3,540 bases of DNA from Escherichia coli (GTDB lineage Bacteria; Pseudomonadota; Gammaproteobacteria; Enterobacterales; Enterobacteriaceae): the NCBI RefSeq assembly GCF_003334255.1, contig NZ_QOWU01000119.1; one strand, 5' to 3'. Each line of letters opens with the position of its first letter. The first letter of the stretch is position 1. The translations under genes and the position numbers were made by a program. Positions 1 to 3,540 of the stretch are shown one piece after another. The notes under the pieces were generated by a model. That model saw only the letters and a list, made by a program, of their open reading frames with translations. It made no database searches and was not told the origin of the DNA.

Positions 1-243
1 CATAAACCGGTGCAGTACTATCCCGGGAAACATCCGTGCGAAAAACCGGCAGAAATGCTGCAGCAGATAATCAGCGCGAGCAGTCGTCCGGGTGACCTGG
101 TTGCAGATTTCTTCATGGGGTCAGGTTCGACAGTCAAAGCAGCGATAGCGCTGGGACGTCGTGCAACTGGCGTTGAGCTGGAGACTGAGCGTTTTGAGCA
201 GACGGTCAGGGAAGTTCAGAATTTAGTCAGTCAGAACGGATGA
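1..243 (+). CDS. DNA methyltransferase, C-terminal part (N6_N4_Mtase-type, probably N6-adenine or N4-cytosine); 5'-truncated by the window edge
   Basis: Frame +1 is open from base 1 (HKPVQYYPGKHPCEKP...), so the GTG at 10 in the track is internal. The stop is TGA at 241-243. The sequence has an HPxxKP-type motif (HPCEKP) followed by SAM-binding motif I FxGSGST (DFFMGSGST). A C-terminal motif I is typical of beta-class amino-methyltransferases. Confidence 0.85.
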   Translation, partial: HKPVQYYPGKHPCEKPAEMLQQIISASSRPGDLVADFFMGSGSTVKAAIALGRRATGVELETERFEQTVREVQNLVSQNG

Positions 244-283: not shown

Positions 284-359
284 GGCCCTTTAGCTCAGTG
301 GTGAGAGCGAGCGACTCATAATCGCCAGGTCGCTGGTTCAAATCCAGCAAGGGCCACCA
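284..359 (+). tRNA. ileZ: tRNA-Ile2 (anticodon CAU, presumably lysidine-modified to read AUA); formally could be tRNA-Met
   Basis: A 76-nt cloverleaf was folded by hand. Acceptor stem GGCCCTT/AAGGGCC has 7 Watson-Crick pairs. D stem is GCTC/GAGC. Anticodon loop is CTCATAA (CAT). T stem is GCTGG/CCAGC with loop TTCAAAT. Discriminator A and CCA are encoded. It closely resembles my recollection of E. coli ileX, and the position matches ileZ of Stx phages. Confidence 0.9.
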
Positions 360-368
360 TATCACATA

Positions 369-445
369 CCGCCATTAGCTCATCGGGATAGAGCGCCAGC
401 CTTCGAAGCTGGCTGCGCGGGGTTCGAGTCCTCGATGGCGGTCCA
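369..445 (+). tRNA. argN: tRNA-Arg (anticodon UCG; reads CGA/CGG)
   Basis: A 77-nt cloverleaf. Acceptor stem is CCGCCAT/ATGGCGG. D stem is GCTC/GAGC with a GGGATA D-loop (Arg-type A20 context). Anticodon stem is CCAGC/GCTGG with loop CTTCGAA (TCG). T stem is CGGGG/CCTCG with one G-T pair and loop TTCGAGT. Discriminator T and CCA are encoded. It lies 9 nt after the first tRNA. The gene symbol is by analogy with the phage ileZ-argN-argO cluster and is less certain than the tRNA call. Confidence 0.85.
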
Positions 446-501
446 TTATCTGCATTATGCGTTGTTGGTTCTGATGAGTGAATCATTGTCTTTTGAGCAA
501 C

Positions 502-523
502 AGGCTATCATATAAGATAGCCT
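502..523. other. Perfect 8-bp stem hairpin (AGGCTATC-ATATAA-GATAGCCT) downstream of the tRNA pair; function unknown
   Basis: The inverted repeat is read directly from the sequence. No adjacent T-tract follows on either strand (the next bases on + are CAGACTTCCTTGTTTATT), so it is not a canonical intrinsic terminator. It could be a processing site or a protein-binding palindrome. Confidence 0.3.
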
Positions 524-711
524 CAGACTTCCTTGTTTATTCTCGCCGGATGCTTCGTAGATATTTGCAGGCATCTGTATGCAGGGGTATTATTGCGGCA
601 TATATCATCCGGAAAAATAAAAACTACATGCTGATCCGGAGATGATAGTTACAAGTCCTCCCGGATCCCGCATATTTACTATATTTTATAGATAATTGTT
701 CTTGTTAATAT

Positions 712-715
712 GGAG
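712..715 (+). promoter_or_regulatory. Shine-Dalgarno (GGAG) for the lipoprotein ORF
   Basis: GGAG lies 8 nt upstream of the ATG at 724. Confidence 0.6.
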
Positions 716-723
716 ATGGATAA

Positions 724-1152
724 ATGTATTGCCGTGCTGTACCAGTTCTTGTTTTGATATTAGCCAGTCTGACAACTGGCTGCACAAAAGATGTATCGAC
801 AAATAATTATGATGCTTCTCTGTATCACTCAGATAAATTAATAAAGTCGCAAAATTTGAGCTCATCGGAACGTACCCCTGATGCCAGTGAAGAAATCAGG
901 CAGTATGCCATTCAGGTCAGGAAAGCCATAGAAGAACAGTTAAAGGATGCGAGTAAGTATTCAGGAAAAGAGTGTTCACTGAGAATGTATATGGCCCCGA
1001 ATGGTCTTCTGCTACAGGTTAAAAGAGAAAGCGGTGATCCCGATTTATGTCGTGAAGCGATGAATGCAGTAAAGAATGCTGATATACCATCACCACCGTC
1101 TTCAGGAGTATATAAAGCATTTAGAAATGGCGTGCTGGATTTTAAACTCTGA
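724..1152 (+). CDS. Prophage-encoded lipoprotein with a TolA C-terminal (domain III)-like domain; lacks TolA domains I and II
   Basis: A complete 142-codon ORF with a Shine-Dalgarno. The N-terminus MYCRAVPVLVLILASLTTG|C has a basic n-region, a hydrophobic core and a lipobox ending at Cys20, with Thr at +2. Residues 56-142 align without gaps to my recollection of the last 87 residues of E. coli TolA. Shared blocks include YA.Q...AIE....DAS.Y.GK.C.LR...AP.G.LL..K.E.GDP.LC..A..A.K.A.IP.PPS..VY..F.N..LDFK. By hand count about 45 of 87 positions are identical, including both cysteines and the C-terminal LDFK ending. The region is visibly AT-rich and uses rare codons. Confidence 0.85.
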   Translation: MYCRAVPVLVLILASLTTGCTKDVSTNNYDASLYHSDKLIKSQNLSSSERTPDASEEIRQYAIQVRKAIEEQLKDASKYSGKECSLRMYMAPNGLLLQVKRESGDPDLCREAMNAVKNADIPSPPSSGVYKAFRNGVLDFKL

Positions 1153-1188
1153 CAGGGGGAGAAGATTTTCTCCTGTCCTGATGATTTT
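1153..1188 (+). terminator. Probable intrinsic terminator directly after the lipoprotein stop codon
   Basis: An interrupted stem is formed by CAGG (1153-1156)/CCTG (1177-1180) plus GGAGAA (1158-1163)/TTCTCC (1168-1173) with loop GATT. TTTT at 1185-1188 follows 4 nt after the stem. The T-tract is short and displaced. Confidence 0.45.
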
Positions 1189-1328
1189 GGGGCGCTGGAA
1201 AGATATTGTGCTGTGAAGTGTTAAATTCCTCACAATTCAGTAAGTTGACAGTTGCCTGTCAGACTGGGCATTTGTTAAAAAAATTTCGCATGGTGAATCC
1301 CCCTGAGCGGAGGGGCGACTGGTGACGG

Positions 1329-1334
1329 TATAAT
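1329..1334 (+). promoter_or_regulatory. Consensus -10 hexamer TATAAT (candidate promoter for the + strand small transcript)
   Basis: This is a perfect TATAAT. There is no convincing -35 at 17 bp spacing (AGCGGA). A TGGTGA repeat copy abuts it at 1320-1325. The element is supported only by a terminator about 110-130 nt downstream. Confidence 0.3.
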
Positions 1335-1340
1335 CTCTGA

Positions 1341-1462
1341 TTATCAAAACGAGAATGACGCGGGTTTAGTGGCACCGGGCTGAACTCACCGGGAGGCACC
1401 CGGCACCATGTTCATGGTGATACAGAAATGCGGCTTCAGCCCCTCTCCGGAGGGGCTTTCTT
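1341..1462 (+). ncRNA. Candidate small RNA (about 120 nt), 5' end approximate
   Basis: It is bounded by TATAAT (1329-1334) and a strong intrinsic terminator (1439-1462). Internal hairpins are CCGGG-AGGCA-CCCGG (1389-1403) and CACCAT-GTTC-ATGGTG (1404-1419). There is no credible ORF. This is prediction only, with no expression data. Confidence 0.35.
1439..1462 (+). terminator. Rho-independent terminator (+ strand)
   Basis: GCCCCTC-TCCG-GAGGGGC forms a 7-bp GC-rich stem with a 4-nt loop, immediately followed by TTTCTT. The reverse strand has no T-tract, so it is unidirectional. Confidence 0.75.
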
Positions 1463-1468
1463 ATGGAC

Positions 1469-1542: not shown

Positions 1543-1572
1543 ATAATACCCCATAGTAATCACTCTGCGCAA
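1543..1572 (-). promoter_or_regulatory. Candidate sigma70 promoter on the minus strand (-35 TTGCGC, 18-bp spacer, -10 TATTAT)
   Basis: The hexamers are read from the reverse complement. The -10 matches 5 of 6 and the -35 matches 4 of 6. The orientation and distance fit the minus-strand terminator at 1469-1496. Confidence 0.3.
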
Positions 1573-1587
1573 CTGCGCGGCCTTTTT
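1565..1587 (+). terminator. Weak terminator-like hairpin on the + strand
   Basis: CTGCGC-AACT-GCGCGG forms 6 bp including one U-G pair, then CC, then TTTTT. It overlaps the proposed minus-strand -35. The stem is short, so confidence is low. Confidence 0.25.
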
Positions 1588-1689: not shown

Positions 1690-3540
1690 ATGACATTTAA
1701 ACACTACGATGTGGTCAGGGCGGCGTCGCCGTCAGACCTTGCGGAGCGACTGACACAAAAACTGAAGGAGGGGTGGCAGCCATTTGGCAGCCCTGTGGCC
1801 ATCACGCCTTATACCCTGATGCAGGCCATTGCGGCGGAAGGTGATGTCACCACACCGGTGGTGGTGCAACCGTCGGGTGATGGTGGCGCTGTTATCAGCA
1901 CCACCAGCGAACCGGAATATTACTTTGTCATTGCGCTGGCCGGGCAGTCCAACTCGATGTCTTTTGGCGAGGGGCTGCCGCTGCCGGAGACATATGACCG
2001 TCCGGACCCGCGTATTAAACAGCTGGCGCGTCGCAGTACGGTGACGCCGGGTGGTGCCGCCTGTAAATATAACGACATCATTCCGGCAGACCACTGTCTG
2101 CATGATGTGCAGGATATGAGTAACCTGAATCATCCTCATGCAGACCTGAGTAAGGGACAGTACGGTTGTGTGGGGCATGCTCTGCATGTTGCCAAAAAGC
2201 TGCTGCCGTTTATGCCTGCGAATGCGGGTATCCTTCTTGTTCCATGTGGCCGTGGCGATTCGGGATTTACTGCGGGGGCCGAGGGGGCGTTTAACGAAGC
2301 GTCGGGAGCGACCGCAGGCTCGTCCCTGTGGGGGGCGGATAAACCGCTGTATCATGACCTGGTCAGCAGAACCCGTGCGGCCCTGAAGAAAAATCCGAAG
2401 AACGTGCTGTTATCAGTGATCTGGATGCAGGGAGAAAAAGATGTCAGTTCGGGGAGACATGCAGAACACAATGCGCTTTTCCTTGCCATGGTAAATCAGT
2501 TCCGTACGGAACTGGCAGATGTGGCAGAGCAGTGTACTGGCGGGACAACGGCCAGCGTCCCGTGGATTTGCGGTGATACCACGTACTACTGGAAGGAAAG
2601 GTATGCAGCGCCGTATGAGGCGGTTTACGGTGGGTATAAAGGCAAAGCTGCGCAGAATATTCACTTTGTGCCGTTGATGACGGATGAGCATGGTGTGAAT
2701 GTGCCGACAAACGAGCCGTCAGAAGATCCGGACATTATCCCGGCGGGATACTATGGCGCTGCGTCACGCACTGCCAGTAACTGGACGTCAGCCGATCGTA
2801 AAACGCACTTCAGTTCATGGGCGCGAAGAGGCCTTGTTTCAGACCGCCTGGCAGGTGCCATTTTGCAGTACGCCGGGCGGACATTATCGTTCCTTACCGG
2901 GCAGAGCGCACCGCAGTCGGGTGGTACAACTCCCGGTGATGATGTCAGTCCGGGGGTACCGGGTGTTGAGAAACCGCAGGATGGCGGTGTTGCTGGTACT
3001 GGTCATGATGAGGCCGTGAGCAGTACCAGGACGGTGGCTGAATATGATGCGAACAGTGGAAATGGTGTATGGACAGAGCAGCAGTGGGGGGCTGCCGGTG
3101 GCAAAGGCACTGTGACTGATGACGGTGGACGGAAAGCGCTACGACTGGAAAAACAGCCCGGTAAACTGACGTCCTGGAAAATGTTCCGTACTGTTGCAGT
3201 GGAGGAGGCAAAAAATCTTCTCAGCAAGGGGGGTGAAATTGCCGTACGGTTCAAAATTCCGGATGGAAGCGAACTGGTGAACGGACAGTTTGTCTTTGGT
3301 CTCTACTGGCCGGTGTCGCAGTGGGCGTCAGGCGCGGCAGCAAACAGTATGCTGGCATCATTCTTCCTTCAGACGGATGCATCAAATCTGAATCTTATGC
3401 ACCACAAGGGCACGTCGAATGCACAACTGGGTACATTTGGTGCGTTTGACCATAACTGGCATACGGTTGTTTTCCGCTTTGCGGGAAATAACAGCGAAAG
3501 AGTCGTTCCGGTGATTGATGGTACAGAGCAGACGGCGTTT
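1690..3540 (+). CDS. nanS-p: Prophage sialate (9-O-acetyl-neuraminate) O-acetylesterase, NanS-p type: DUF1737 N-domain, SASA/SGNH esterase domain, Gly/Pro-rich linker, lectin/LamG-like C-domain; 3'-truncated by the window edge
   Basis: I translated frame +1 from ATG 1690 by hand and found 617 sense codons with no stop through 3540. That is why the ORF track does not list it. The N-terminus MTFKHYDVVRAASPSDLAE.LTQKLKEGWQPFG matches my recollection of the DUF1737 start of Stx-phage ORF L0105/NanS-p. The esterase block-I motif AGQSNS (Ser codon at 1948-1950) and IWMQGEKD (the WxQGE motif of the SASA family) are present. The strong Shine-Dalgarno and the homogeneous GC-rich coding signal also support it. 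Confidence 0.9.
   Translation, partial: MTFKHYDVVRAASPSDLAERLTQKLKEGWQPFGSPVAITPYTLMQAIAAEGDVTTPVVVQPSGDGGAVISTTSEPEYYFVIALAGQSNSMSFGEGLPLPETYDRPDPRIKQLARRSTVTPGGAACKYNDIIPADHCLHDVQDMSNLNHPHADLSKGQYGCVGHALHVAKKLLPFMPANAGILLVPCGRGDSGFTAGAEGAFNEASGATAGSSLWGADKPLYHDLVSRTRAALKKNPKNVLLSVIWMQGEKDVSSGRHAEHNALFLAMVNQFRTELADVAEQCTGGTTASVPWICGDTTYYWKERYAAPYEAVYGGYKGKAAQNIHFVPLMTDEHGVNVPTNEPSEDPDIIPAGYYGAASRTASNWTSADRKTHFSSWARRGLVSDRLAGAILQYAGRTLSFLTGQSAPQSGGTTPGDDVSPGVPGVEKPQDGGVAGTGHDEAVSSTRTVAEYDANSGNGVWTEQQWGAAGGKGTVTDDGGRKALRLEKQPGKLTSWKMFRTVAVEEAKNLLSKGGEIAVRFKIPDGSELVNGQFVFGLYWPVSQWASGAAANSMLASFFLQTDASNLNLMHHKGTSNAQLGTFGAFDHNWHTVVFRFAGNNSERVVPVIDGTEQTAF

Follow-up and report, generated by a model that had tools for sequence, protein, structure and literature searches.

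We analysed a stretch of 3,540 nucleotides of Escherichia coli DNA (contig NZ_QOWU01000119.1 of RefSeq assembly GCF_003334255.1), which is called the window below and which lies in the late region of a Shiga toxin (Stx)-type lambdoid prophage. The window begins with the 3' end of a phage DNA methyltransferase gene and two tRNA genes, continues with an AT-rich block containing one protein-coding gene, and closes with a small RNA (sRNA) gene and the 5' part of a nanS-p-type esterase gene. The AT-rich block (730 bp, 467-1196) is very probably a moron cassette in a polymorphic cargo slot of the late operon, and its one gene encodes a lipoprotein signal, a linker and domain III of TolA (TolA-III).

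An earlier note, made from the letters of the window alone, had described positions 446-1260 as AT-rich and of rare-codon usage, between GC-rich flanks carrying a methyltransferase, tRNA-Ile2, tRNA-Arg and nanS-p. These flanking genes were backed by Pfam, ARAGORN and RefSeq annotation, and the sliding GC profile revealed a clear compositional break: in 200-nt windows the GC content was 0.355-0.44 at about 450-1250 and 0.50-0.61 on either side. The leader (446-723) had a GC content of 0.381 and the coding sequence (724-1152) 0.408; the tRNAs had 0.593, the sRNA region (1259-1468) 0.533 and nanS-p 0.554. The rare codons were seen as well. GC at third codon positions was 0.33 in the cassette gene and 0.56 in nanS-p, AUA was used for four of the six Ile codons and AGA or AGG for five of the eight Arg codons, and the rare-codon fraction was 0.092 vs 0.042. 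The block is therefore real, but its ends had been set too wide: the left one lay 21 nt and the right one 64 nt outside the true boundary. Alignment to an empty-slot prophage placed the mosaic boundaries at 466/467 and 1196/1197, and the end formerly given near 1260 coincides with the start of a PasD/STnc100-family sRNA gene. The cassette so delimited has a GC content of 0.407 vs 0.541 in the remaining window, the deviant composition looked for in a moron, and belongs to the lowest 0.7% among 730-bp windows of a related 30.8-kb prophage (L001).

The Stx2a phage Stx2_95 (L002, LC567838) has the gene order Q, small open reading frame (ORF), methylase, tRNA-Ile, tRNA-Arg, tRNA-Arg, stx2A, stx2B, nanS-p, two small ORFs and holin. 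Homology to this phage extended over 1-466 at 95.5% identity and resumed at 1230 at 79%, and stx2B ended 46 nt before this right-hand matching point. The third tRNA (a tRNA-Arg) and stx2AB of the phage are replaced by the non-homologous middle of the window; no stx homology was found in the window, and the stx2AB interval of the phage (3467-4911) had no counterpart there. In the stx-free prophage of O55:H7 CB9615 (L007) the slot is empty, the third tRNA being followed by 47 nt and then by the conserved spacer and the sRNA gene. Here the left homology ended at 466 and the right one started at 1197, with the 730 bp of the window in between, which is the extra segment between genes adjacent in relatives that characterizes a moron. 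Compared with a prophage carrying TerB and DUF3927 as cargo (L008), the homology ended at 466 and started again at 1213. The left junction in every comparison was nucleotide 8 of the third tRNA-Arg(UCU).

Among complete genomes the nearest was E. coli G1/2 (CP060083; prophage L001), which was 97.7% identical over the whole window and showed the Stx2_95 gene order with a 'tolA' gene replacing the third tRNA and stx2AB. Through a spread sample of E. coli, the slot was found to contain stx2AB (with or without iraM/IS1), nothing, TerB with DUF3927, iraM with DUF3927, or a tolA-like gene. Since one and the same position is held by stx2AB, nothing, TerB, iraM or the tolA-like gene, it is an exchangeable cargo slot. 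The late-region order of Stx phages, Q, (methylase), tRNA cluster, slot, nanS-p and holin, was present, and stxA and stxB were absent. The position of stxAB between the tRNA cluster and nanS-p, which the earlier note had given after the 933W/Sp5 maps, could be seen directly in the Stx2_95 alignment. Its proposal that the flanks are syntenic with the stx locus and enclose a moron slot with non-toxin cargo was borne out by the sharp breakpoints against the Stx2, empty and TerB prophages and by the several alternative cargos.

Some relatives contained compound cargo, in which the tolA-like gene is followed by an AraC-family regulator. This regulator (HTH_18, 241 aa) was located between the tolA-like gene and nanS-p, at 7126-7851 in L010/L011 and also in the IMG/VR loci L032, L033, L035 and L038-L040. 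Extra STnc100-like copies were found between successive cassettes in relatives, for example in the order tolA-like, STnc100, AraC, three STnc100, nanS; the TerB prophage contained two such copies, and the Qin-type prophages contained one upstream, not downstream, of the tolA-like gene. The STnc100 repeats and the tRNA cluster might plausibly be the substrates for homologous recombination that swaps cargo, including stx. The stx slot is herewith documented as a general cargo site, bounded sharply by the third tRNA (at its nucleotide 8) on the left and by the sRNA region (PasD/STnc100) on the right, and the copies between cassettes suggest how stx itself gets exchanged.

The product of the cassette gene matched Pfam PF06519 (TolA C-terminal domain) with 81.4 bits (cut-off 25, E = 5.7e-23), with residues 52-140 aligned to positions 7-96 of the 96-position profile, and matched the solved structures of E. 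coli TolA domain III (PDB 1S62, 3QDP, 1TOL and 3QDR) with E = 1.6e-25. Identity to E. coli TolA 333-421 was 51% (45/89 residues). The two disulfide cysteines are kept (C84 and C109, corresponding to C363 and C388 of TolA). The beta3 strand is kept too: L138-D139-F140-K141 corresponds to L417-K420 of TolA, and the segment reads FRNGVLDFK here vs FKNAPLDFK in TolA. In TolA, D418 and K420 serve as backbone hydrogen-bond donors for the binding of g3p, ColN and TolB, and proline substitutions in the D418/K420 strand lead to a complete tol phenotype (PMC4339652).

In place of the TolA membrane anchor the protein begins with a lipoprotein signal, MYCRAVPVLVLILASLTTG-C20, and a low-complexity linker follows. 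The N-terminus reads MYCR-AVPVLVLILASL-TTG-C20 and has the positively charged n-region, the hydrophobic h-region and the Cys of the lipobox pattern (PROSITE PS51257 type). By the +2 rule for lipoprotein sorting in E. coli, the Thr at +2 predicts sorting to the outer membrane. The inner-membrane anchor (TolA I) and the helical domain II are absent from the protein, whose whole length is 142 aa, and there is therefore no coupling to the TolQR motor or to the proton motive force. The gene is located outside the tolQRA-tolB-pal cluster, with the phage methylase, the tRNAs, the sRNA and nanS-p as neighbours. NCBIfam PRK09510 scored 103 bits, below its cut-off of 213; TIGR02794 scored 75.9 bits vs a cut-off of 59.45, but only over profile positions 266-361 of 362. 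Because the TolA equivalogs align only over their last 95 or so positions and PRK09510 stays below its cut-off, naming the gene 'cell envelope integrity protein TolA', as RefSeq does, is an over-annotation; of the defining TolA features the protein has the PF06519 domain alone. The features of the window are collected in Table 1.

Table 1. Features of the 3,540-nt window, with the evidence for each.
Feature	Position	Strand	Evidence
Phage DNA N6/N4 methyltransferase gene, 3' end; conserved left flank	10..243	+	Pfam PF01555, 2e-21; DNA-methyltransferase annotation in L001
tRNA, anticodon CAU (tRNA-Ile2 type, reads AUA)	284..359	+	ARAGORN; Rfam tRNA 72.5 bits; RefSeq tRNA-Ile
tRNA-Arg, anticodon UCG	369..445	+	ARAGORN; Rfam 55.1 bits
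Tentative relic of the third tRNA-Arg(UCU) of Stx phages	459..500	+	28/43 positions match the Stx2_95 tRNA
Cargo cassette proper, 730-bp AT-rich block in the stx slot	467..1196	+	Breakpoints vs L007, L002, L008; GC 0.407
Untranslated leader accompanying the window allele	467..723	+	In 123 genomes, 121 at >=99% identity
Shine-Dalgarno GGAG, 8 nt before the ATG at 724	712..715	+	Sequence inspection
Coding sequence, 142 aa, lipoprotein-anchored TolA domain III (RefSeq WP_000271631.1, misnamed 'TolA')	724..1152	+	ORF list; RefSeq; PF06519; TolA-III structures
Signal peptide, lipobox L-T-T-G-C, Cys20 codon 781-783	724..783	+	Gly19/Cys20 conservation
Linker (tether), about 33 residues, predicted disordered	784..882	+	AlphaFold predicted local distance difference test score (pLDDT) <50 for residues 1-52
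TolA domain III, aa 54-142, aligned to E. coli TolA 333-421	883..1149	+	45/89 identical
12-bp hairpin overlapping the stop codon, not a canonical terminator	1151..1177	+	Hairpin scan; missed by terminator scan
Conserved spacer, also in the empty-slot, Stx and TerB prophages; TTGACA at 1235-1240, ahead of the sRNA gene	1197..1258	+	82% identity to L007 1840-1901
PasD/STnc100-family prophage sRNA gene, full-length; right conserved flank	1259..1468	+	Rfam RF02076, 165.6 bits, E = 1.3e-38
nanS-p-type sialate O-acetylesterase, 5' 617 codons, runs past the window end	1690..3540	+	Pfam DUF1737 + SASA + DUF6645

Parts of 446-1260 matched in 895 of 5,426 complete E. coli genomes, 123 of which contained the window allele together with its leader. 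The ORF was intact in most of the 895, including those with defective Qin-type prophages, and the exact window protein was indexed in 5,237 blocks of the assembly collection. Three E. coli alleles were revealed, with 65-73% amino-acid identity to each other. All seven intact members of the three alleles have Gly19 and Cys20, and the two residues are nearly invariant when frameshifted copies are counted; the h-regions differ, and the lipobox of the other alleles ends in AAGC or IIGC. Some copies were frameshifted or truncated (P0019-P0029, P0037). The gene is under purifying selection, because the pairwise ratio of nonsynonymous to synonymous substitution rates (dN/dS) was 0.23-0.29 in the domain; it was 0.35-0.39 overall, at dS of about 0.45-0.6, and highest in the linker (0.36-0.87).

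The common allele was found in Qin-type defective prophages with the order Q, tRNAs, DUF3927, STnc100-like, tolA1, tolA2 and essD. Here tolA2 is a second, more divergent lipoprotein-TolA-III of 124 aa with the lipobox VAGC, in tandem with the first (L003 6533-6907, strain GB089). A close tolA2-type homologue was also detected on pO157 of O157:H7 Sakai (L110 4815-5246), downstream of psiB, psiA and a flm/hok-type stability gene (labelled parB). In IMG/VR, all 80 of 80 loci, about 58 Qin-type and 22 Stx-type, had the gene co-oriented between Q/tRNAs and holin, and it was found behind several unrelated Q families, of at least four types. Only one of 50,697 deposited phage genomes (mEp460_ev081) contained the gene, and a scan of species-representative genomes with search patterns specific to the E. 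coli alleles revealed it only in Shigella flexneri.

The gene has its own Shine-Dalgarno, as the earlier note had said (Table 1). The note had seen no convincing sigma70 promoter in 446-723, and the promoter scan agrees: three promoter-like sites were found vs 2.8 expected in shuffled sequence, and a dedicated promoter for the cassette gene was rejected, as nothing was above chance. A weak candidate in the leader, TTTGCA-18-TATTAT at 564-593, matched 9 of 12 positions. Another, the GTTACA-17-CATATT at 648-676 named in the note, is conserved in position in the M3 allele, but with only 4 of 6 in each hexamer. The leader (257 nt) never occurred in another context among its 123 genomes, and from about 640 onward it is shared by the M3 allele. 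Four exact ATCCGG hexamers were located within 121 nt of it, 546-666 (546-, 607+, 634+ and 661-), and two more in the other 3.4 kb of the window; the total of six was reached by 4 of 200 shuffles, and the cluster is absent upstream of the M3 allele.

The hairpin that the earlier note had placed right after the stop codon is present, but its description as terminator-like is only weakly supported. Its stem (1151-1162/1166-1177) had -21.5 kcal/mol with z = -2.07, and a 53-nt excerpt was unremarkable (z = -1.06). As a canonical intrinsic terminator it was rejected, having no U-tract directly after it, no call by the terminator scan and no equivalent in the other alleles. As for the own promoter and terminator of a moron, we found 9-of-12 matches at chance frequency and this non-conserved hairpin. 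No LexA box was found near the cassette gene, the sole match in the window being at 3110 inside nanS-p with one mismatch. In the related prophage, strong terminator-like (tR'-like) sites are located 35-100 nt after Q, and no better-than-chance promoter was found between these terminators and the gene. Because of the co-orientation in all 80 viral loci, the tR'-like terminators after Q and the want of a convincing own promoter, it is reasonable to take Q-dependent read-through upon induction, with strong late co-expression, as the default expectation. The gene is also kept in defective Qin-type prophages and on plasmids, which suggests that its expression is important without induction as well.

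On the left of the cassette, 459-466 represents the intact first 8 nt of the third tRNA-Arg(UCU), and the next 35 nt or so tentatively resemble a decayed D and anticodon arm, with CTTTTGA now at the anticodon-loop position; neither ARAGORN nor Rfam found a tRNA at 459-500. The lost tRNA decodes AGA/AGG, the codons of five of the eight Arg residues of the cassette gene. On the right, the PasD/STnc100 sRNA gene has its terminator at 1438-1457 (+) by the terminator scan, and the family is known directly upstream of a prophage esterase gene (bioRxiv 10.64898/2026.05.13.724894). This terminator stands back to back with a convergent minus-strand hairpin at 1496-1475 (GCCCGCG...CGCGGGC, then T6), suggesting that an opposite-strand transcript also ends near 1475-1496. 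Another terminator-like site was found at 1565-1580 (+), upstream of the nanS-p-type gene, which RefSeq names SASA family carbohydrate esterase.

The cassette protein belongs to a wider family. Searching 1.84 billion representative proteins with a profile, we obtained 468 hits, among them dozens of clusters of 115-160 aa with a lipobox and TolA-III, from Serratia, Kosakonia, Klebsiella, Enterobacter, Pseudescherichia, Scandinavium and others, all automatically named TolA. In 51 diverse short members, the lipobox Cys was present in at least 90%, both disulfide cysteines were invariant and the C-terminal consensus was FKNAxLDFK. TolA-III-domain genes were found on 1,324 of 72,556 plasmids in PLSDB. 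Domain-III-only lipoproteins of 115-160 aa bear the label 'tolA: cell envelope integrity protein TolA' in hundreds of E. coli genomes and on over 1,000 plasmids, a systematic over-annotation that stems from the TIGR02794 equivalog.

The genomic context was sampled for about eleven clusters, without statistical control. A Kosakonia member with an intact ORF is located in a prophage remnant beside icd and dinI, and a K. pneumoniae cluster (more than 1,000 contigs) in IS66/TIR/resolvase-rich DNA behind a thioredoxin-fold gene. Three clusters of less than 50% identity share one chromosomal site between clcB (CLC channel) and an osmoprotectant-type ABC transporter, in surroundings free of mobile-element genes, and a Klebsiella michiganensis member adjoins a TonB-dependent receptor gene. 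Bacteriocin genes were neighbours in further cases. On a metagenome contig (L020, Pseudescherichia-like) a lipoprotein-TolA-III gene lies about 490 bp from, and divergent to, a ColA-like colicin gene (5193-7414, chromosomal or prophage-borne), whose product combines the TolB box DGTGWSSE with a ColA_N domain for TolA binding and a pore domain; a perfect LexA box (CTGTATATCCATACAG) and a putative immunity gene of 113 aa belong to the locus, and no lysis gene was called there. At L021 the gene comes directly after a Bor homologue, and a colicin pore-domain gene and a lipoprotein with the TonB C-terminal domain (TonB_C) are within 3 kb.

On 10-kb ColRNAI Klebsiella plasmids, the lipoprotein-TolA-III gene overlaps a Sec-exported TonB_C gene by 4 nt, the two probably forming an operon to judge from their arrangement, and the pair is divergent from a cloacin/E3-type bacteriocin-immunity-lysis operon. 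An example is K. pneumoniae plasmid pn142_2 (NZ_CP053877; L109 5451-6184), and 238 plasmids carry at least 80% of this 3.8-kb TolA-III/TonB_C/bacteriocin arrangement. In CloDF13-type relatives the same slot contains the unrelated proteins K and L, which were rejected as TolA/TonB homologues for lack of any Pfam relation. A TonB_C partner was found in the prophage as well: about 7 kb downstream of the cassette gene in E. coli G1/2, after Rz, there is a 108-aa lipoprotein (MKRNLPLIILLSSLVMGC...) with a TonB C-terminal domain (L001 22266-22592). Such a lipoprotein-TonB_C was present in 6 of the 13 Stx-type loci reaching Rz, in 0 of 41 Qin-type loci and in 15 of 50,697 phage genomes, including phage 21 and some Stx1a phages. 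Its PHROGs label, 'Rz-like spanin', looks wrong.

In sum, the late-operon cargo slot contains a stand-alone, exported and probably lipid-anchored TolA-III under purifying selection. Of the readings considered, the likeliest, with a probability of about 0.45, is that it serves as an unenergised decoy for those colicins and filamentous phages that depend on TolA. Group A colicins and Ff phages cannot enter without capturing TolA-III, which serves them as a hub (PMC7391070). After lipidation at Cys20 the protein would be sorted, with its +2 Thr, to the inner face of the outer membrane, where an unenergised TolA-III would hang beside the porins and TolB-Pal. It could there intercept the TolA-binding epitopes of group A colicins (A, N, K and E1) and of filamentous-phage g3p; TolB-dependent E colicins and cloacins might be hit indirectly. 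Ligands bound to the decoy would be unconnected to TolQRA and would not be imported, leaving a tolerant lysogen. Expression would come by read-through from pR' under Q antitermination, with a possible low level in the lysogen from a weak own promoter. A modest amount of decoy might titrate the parasitic ligands without a full tol phenotype, which is plausible because the dissociation constant is 1 uM for ColN-TolA vs 40 uM for TolA-TolB (PMC4339652).

Several observations are consistent with a decoy. Short lipoprotein-TolA-III genes stand beside three kinds of bacteriocin locus (L020, L021 and the ColRNAI plasmids). The main discriminator between the hypotheses is the TonB_C pairing, which favours the decoy because TolA and TonB have in common their exploitation by colicins and phages, not a role in outer-membrane integrity. 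That defective prophages and plasmids keep the gene speaks for an advantage to the carrier cell, and the intact ORF in defective and remnant prophages argues for a host benefit over a purely lytic role. Levengood-Freyermuth and colleagues in 1993 and Wan and Baneyx in 1998 reportedly obtained E. coli that was tolerant to colicins and f1, and leaky, by making periplasmic TolA-III from a plasmid.

Other observations weigh against this reading. The ColA-binding box is LLQVKR here vs LLDIKP in TolA, with 3 of 6 residues kept, so that ligand binding is not assured, and the g3p-contact helix is identical to TolA at 7 of 16 positions. Ligand-site identity, beta3 excepted, is no higher than that of the whole domain, and the hypotheses cannot be told apart by it. 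TolB binding depends on the beta3 strand too, and a perturbation of Tol-Pal is equally possible on that account. The AlphaFold2 model, from a 20-sequence alignment, had a low-confidence pLDDT of 55, and the homology assignment rests on the sequence match to solved TolA-III because this model is too poor for fold searches. The gene may be silent in lysogens and made only near lysis, when colicin tolerance would be of little use. The TonB_C co-occurrence in prophages may come from shared lineage and not from shared function, and the chromosomal, non-mobile members hint at a housekeeping envelope role for the family. PHROG 5772 is listed as of unknown function, and PADLOC-DB 2.0 gave no family at E <= 0.1 for the window protein or its second paralogue. 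Our literature search, in a library that lacks the older colicin-plasmid literature, found no publication on the short lipoprotein-TolA-III family, and an earlier description is possible.

The same protein could act in the lytic cycle as a Tol-Pal antagonist, a role that we consider unlikely. Produced in bulk from the Q-antiterminated late transcript, a TolA-III tethered to the outer membrane would sequester the TolB N-terminus in competition with TolA; Pal mobilisation would be blocked and the outer membrane loosened, and the leakiness or vesiculation would aid the release of virions or periplasmic contents, as lysis releases Stx. This would suit a gene that is co-oriented inside the late operon without a convincing own promoter and that keeps the TolB-binding LDFK, in agreement with the FKNAxLDFK consensus of the whole short family. 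TolA point mutants unable to bind TolB show a full tol phenotype with periplasmic leakage (PMC4339652). TolAIII co-expression is in use in engineering for the release of proteins, a biotherapeutic among them (and reportedly by Wan and Baneyx in 1998), and the genes at L020 and on the cloacin plasmids are near SOS-induced bacteriocin operons whose products need release. However, the phage already has holin, endolysin and Rz-type lysis genes, the cloacin plasmids already encode a dedicated lysis protein, and colicins are cytoplasmic, so that periplasmic leakiness alone would not free them. The gene is moreover intact in defective prophages, remnants and plasmids, where there is no lysis, and its recurrent partner is TonB_C, whereas TonB plays no part in the integrity of the outer membrane.

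An envelope lipoprotein whose physiological partner has nothing to do with import parasites, acting for example by TolB-Pal/CpoB modulation or in a Bor-like role in serum resistance or colonisation, seems similarly improbable; the prophage gene would then be a mobile copy of a chromosomal family. The three clusters at one conserved chromosomal CLC/ABC-transporter locus without mobile genes, the K. michiganensis member beside a TonB-dependent receptor and the position of the L021 gene directly after a Bor homologue fit such a role, but it leaves unexplained the repeated linkage to bacteriocin operons and the TonB_C pairing on three kinds of mobile element, and the data suggest no partner beyond the known TolA-III ligands. 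A captured tolA fragment drifting without function in a recombination hot spot, AT-rich merely as foreign DNA, is scarcely credible. The frameshifted or truncated copies and the weak expression signals would be expected of such a relic; against it stand the domain dN/dS of 0.23-0.29 at dS of about 0.45, the lipobox, disulfide cysteines and C-terminal strand conserved across three alleles and more than 50 distant clusters, the lipoprotein signal acquired in place of the TolA membrane anchor, and the presence in 895 of 5,426 genomes with the exact protein in 5,237 assembly-collection blocks.

Returning to the decoy, we tentatively extend it to a wider group, with rather less than even confidence: mobile elements of Enterobacterales, namely lambdoid prophages, ColE1-type bacteriocin plasmids, F-like plasmids and genomic islands, may carry unrecognised 'energy-transducer decoys', made of lipoprotein-TolA-III and exported or tethered TonB_C, that together would make the carrier broadly tolerant to colicins and phages making use of Tol or Ton. 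The stx-slot cassette would be one of them, and all are mislabelled as 'TolA' or 'TonB family protein'. The gene is in any case common and systematically misnamed as the housekeeping TolA. If the decoy is true, it would be a simple and portable means of broad tolerance to colicins and filamentous phage, working through mimicry of the import hub and not through a toxin-specific immunity protein or receptor loss, and it would bear on colicin warfare, on phage therapy with Tol/Ton-dependent phages and on phage display hosts, in natural E. coli and Klebsiella. If instead the Tol-Pal antagonist is true, it would bear on the induction-driven release of vesicles and toxin in Shiga toxin-producing E. 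coli, many of which have this prophage together with Stx phages.

Compared with known systems, the cassette has the slot and the transcriptional logic of the stx moron, which are known biology. A natural decoy of mobile elements derived from a captured energy-transducer domain is apparently undescribed in the literature searched. The cassette shares with the stxAB moron (933W/Sp5 type; Stx2_95) the orientation and the position downstream of Q, between the tRNA cluster and the PasD/STnc100 sRNA gene with nanS-p, an exported product and presumed late read-through; it differs in being a single lipoprotein gene instead of an AB5 toxin, in the loss of the third tRNA-Arg(UCU), and in that no virulence role is suggested. 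The protein resembles E. coli TolA domain III in its disulfide cysteines, its predicted topology (helix, two strands, helix, C-terminal strands) and the LDFK strand. Unlike E. coli TolA, it has no anchor or domain II, bears a lipoprotein signal, is encoded in a prophage late operon and has diverged in the ColA box and the g3p helix.

Among phage lipoproteins, Cor (phi80/N15/HK022) and Llp (T5) inactivate the receptor FhuA, and Bor and Lom are morons of lambda. By analogy, the cassette protein may be likened to Cor and Llp as a small accessory lipoprotein of a temperate phage proposed to exclude phages or colicins at the envelope; the proposed means is mimicry of a periplasmic energy-transducer domain and not a block of FhuA, and there is no sequence relationship. 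The laboratory overproduction of periplasmic TolA-III, reported to give tolerance and leakiness, likewise uses an isolated TolA-III uncoupled from TolQR, whereas the natural protein is lipid-anchored by a linker, 49% diverged and under phage control. The protein of plasmid pn142_2 has the same architecture (123 aa, lipobox LLTAC, PF06519 2.4e-24) and also occupies a variable slot of a mobile element, but it is only about 30-35% identical to the cassette protein and is encoded beside a cloacin/E3-type bacteriocin operon, with a Sec-exported TonB_C partner whose gene overlaps by 4 nt, probably in one operon.

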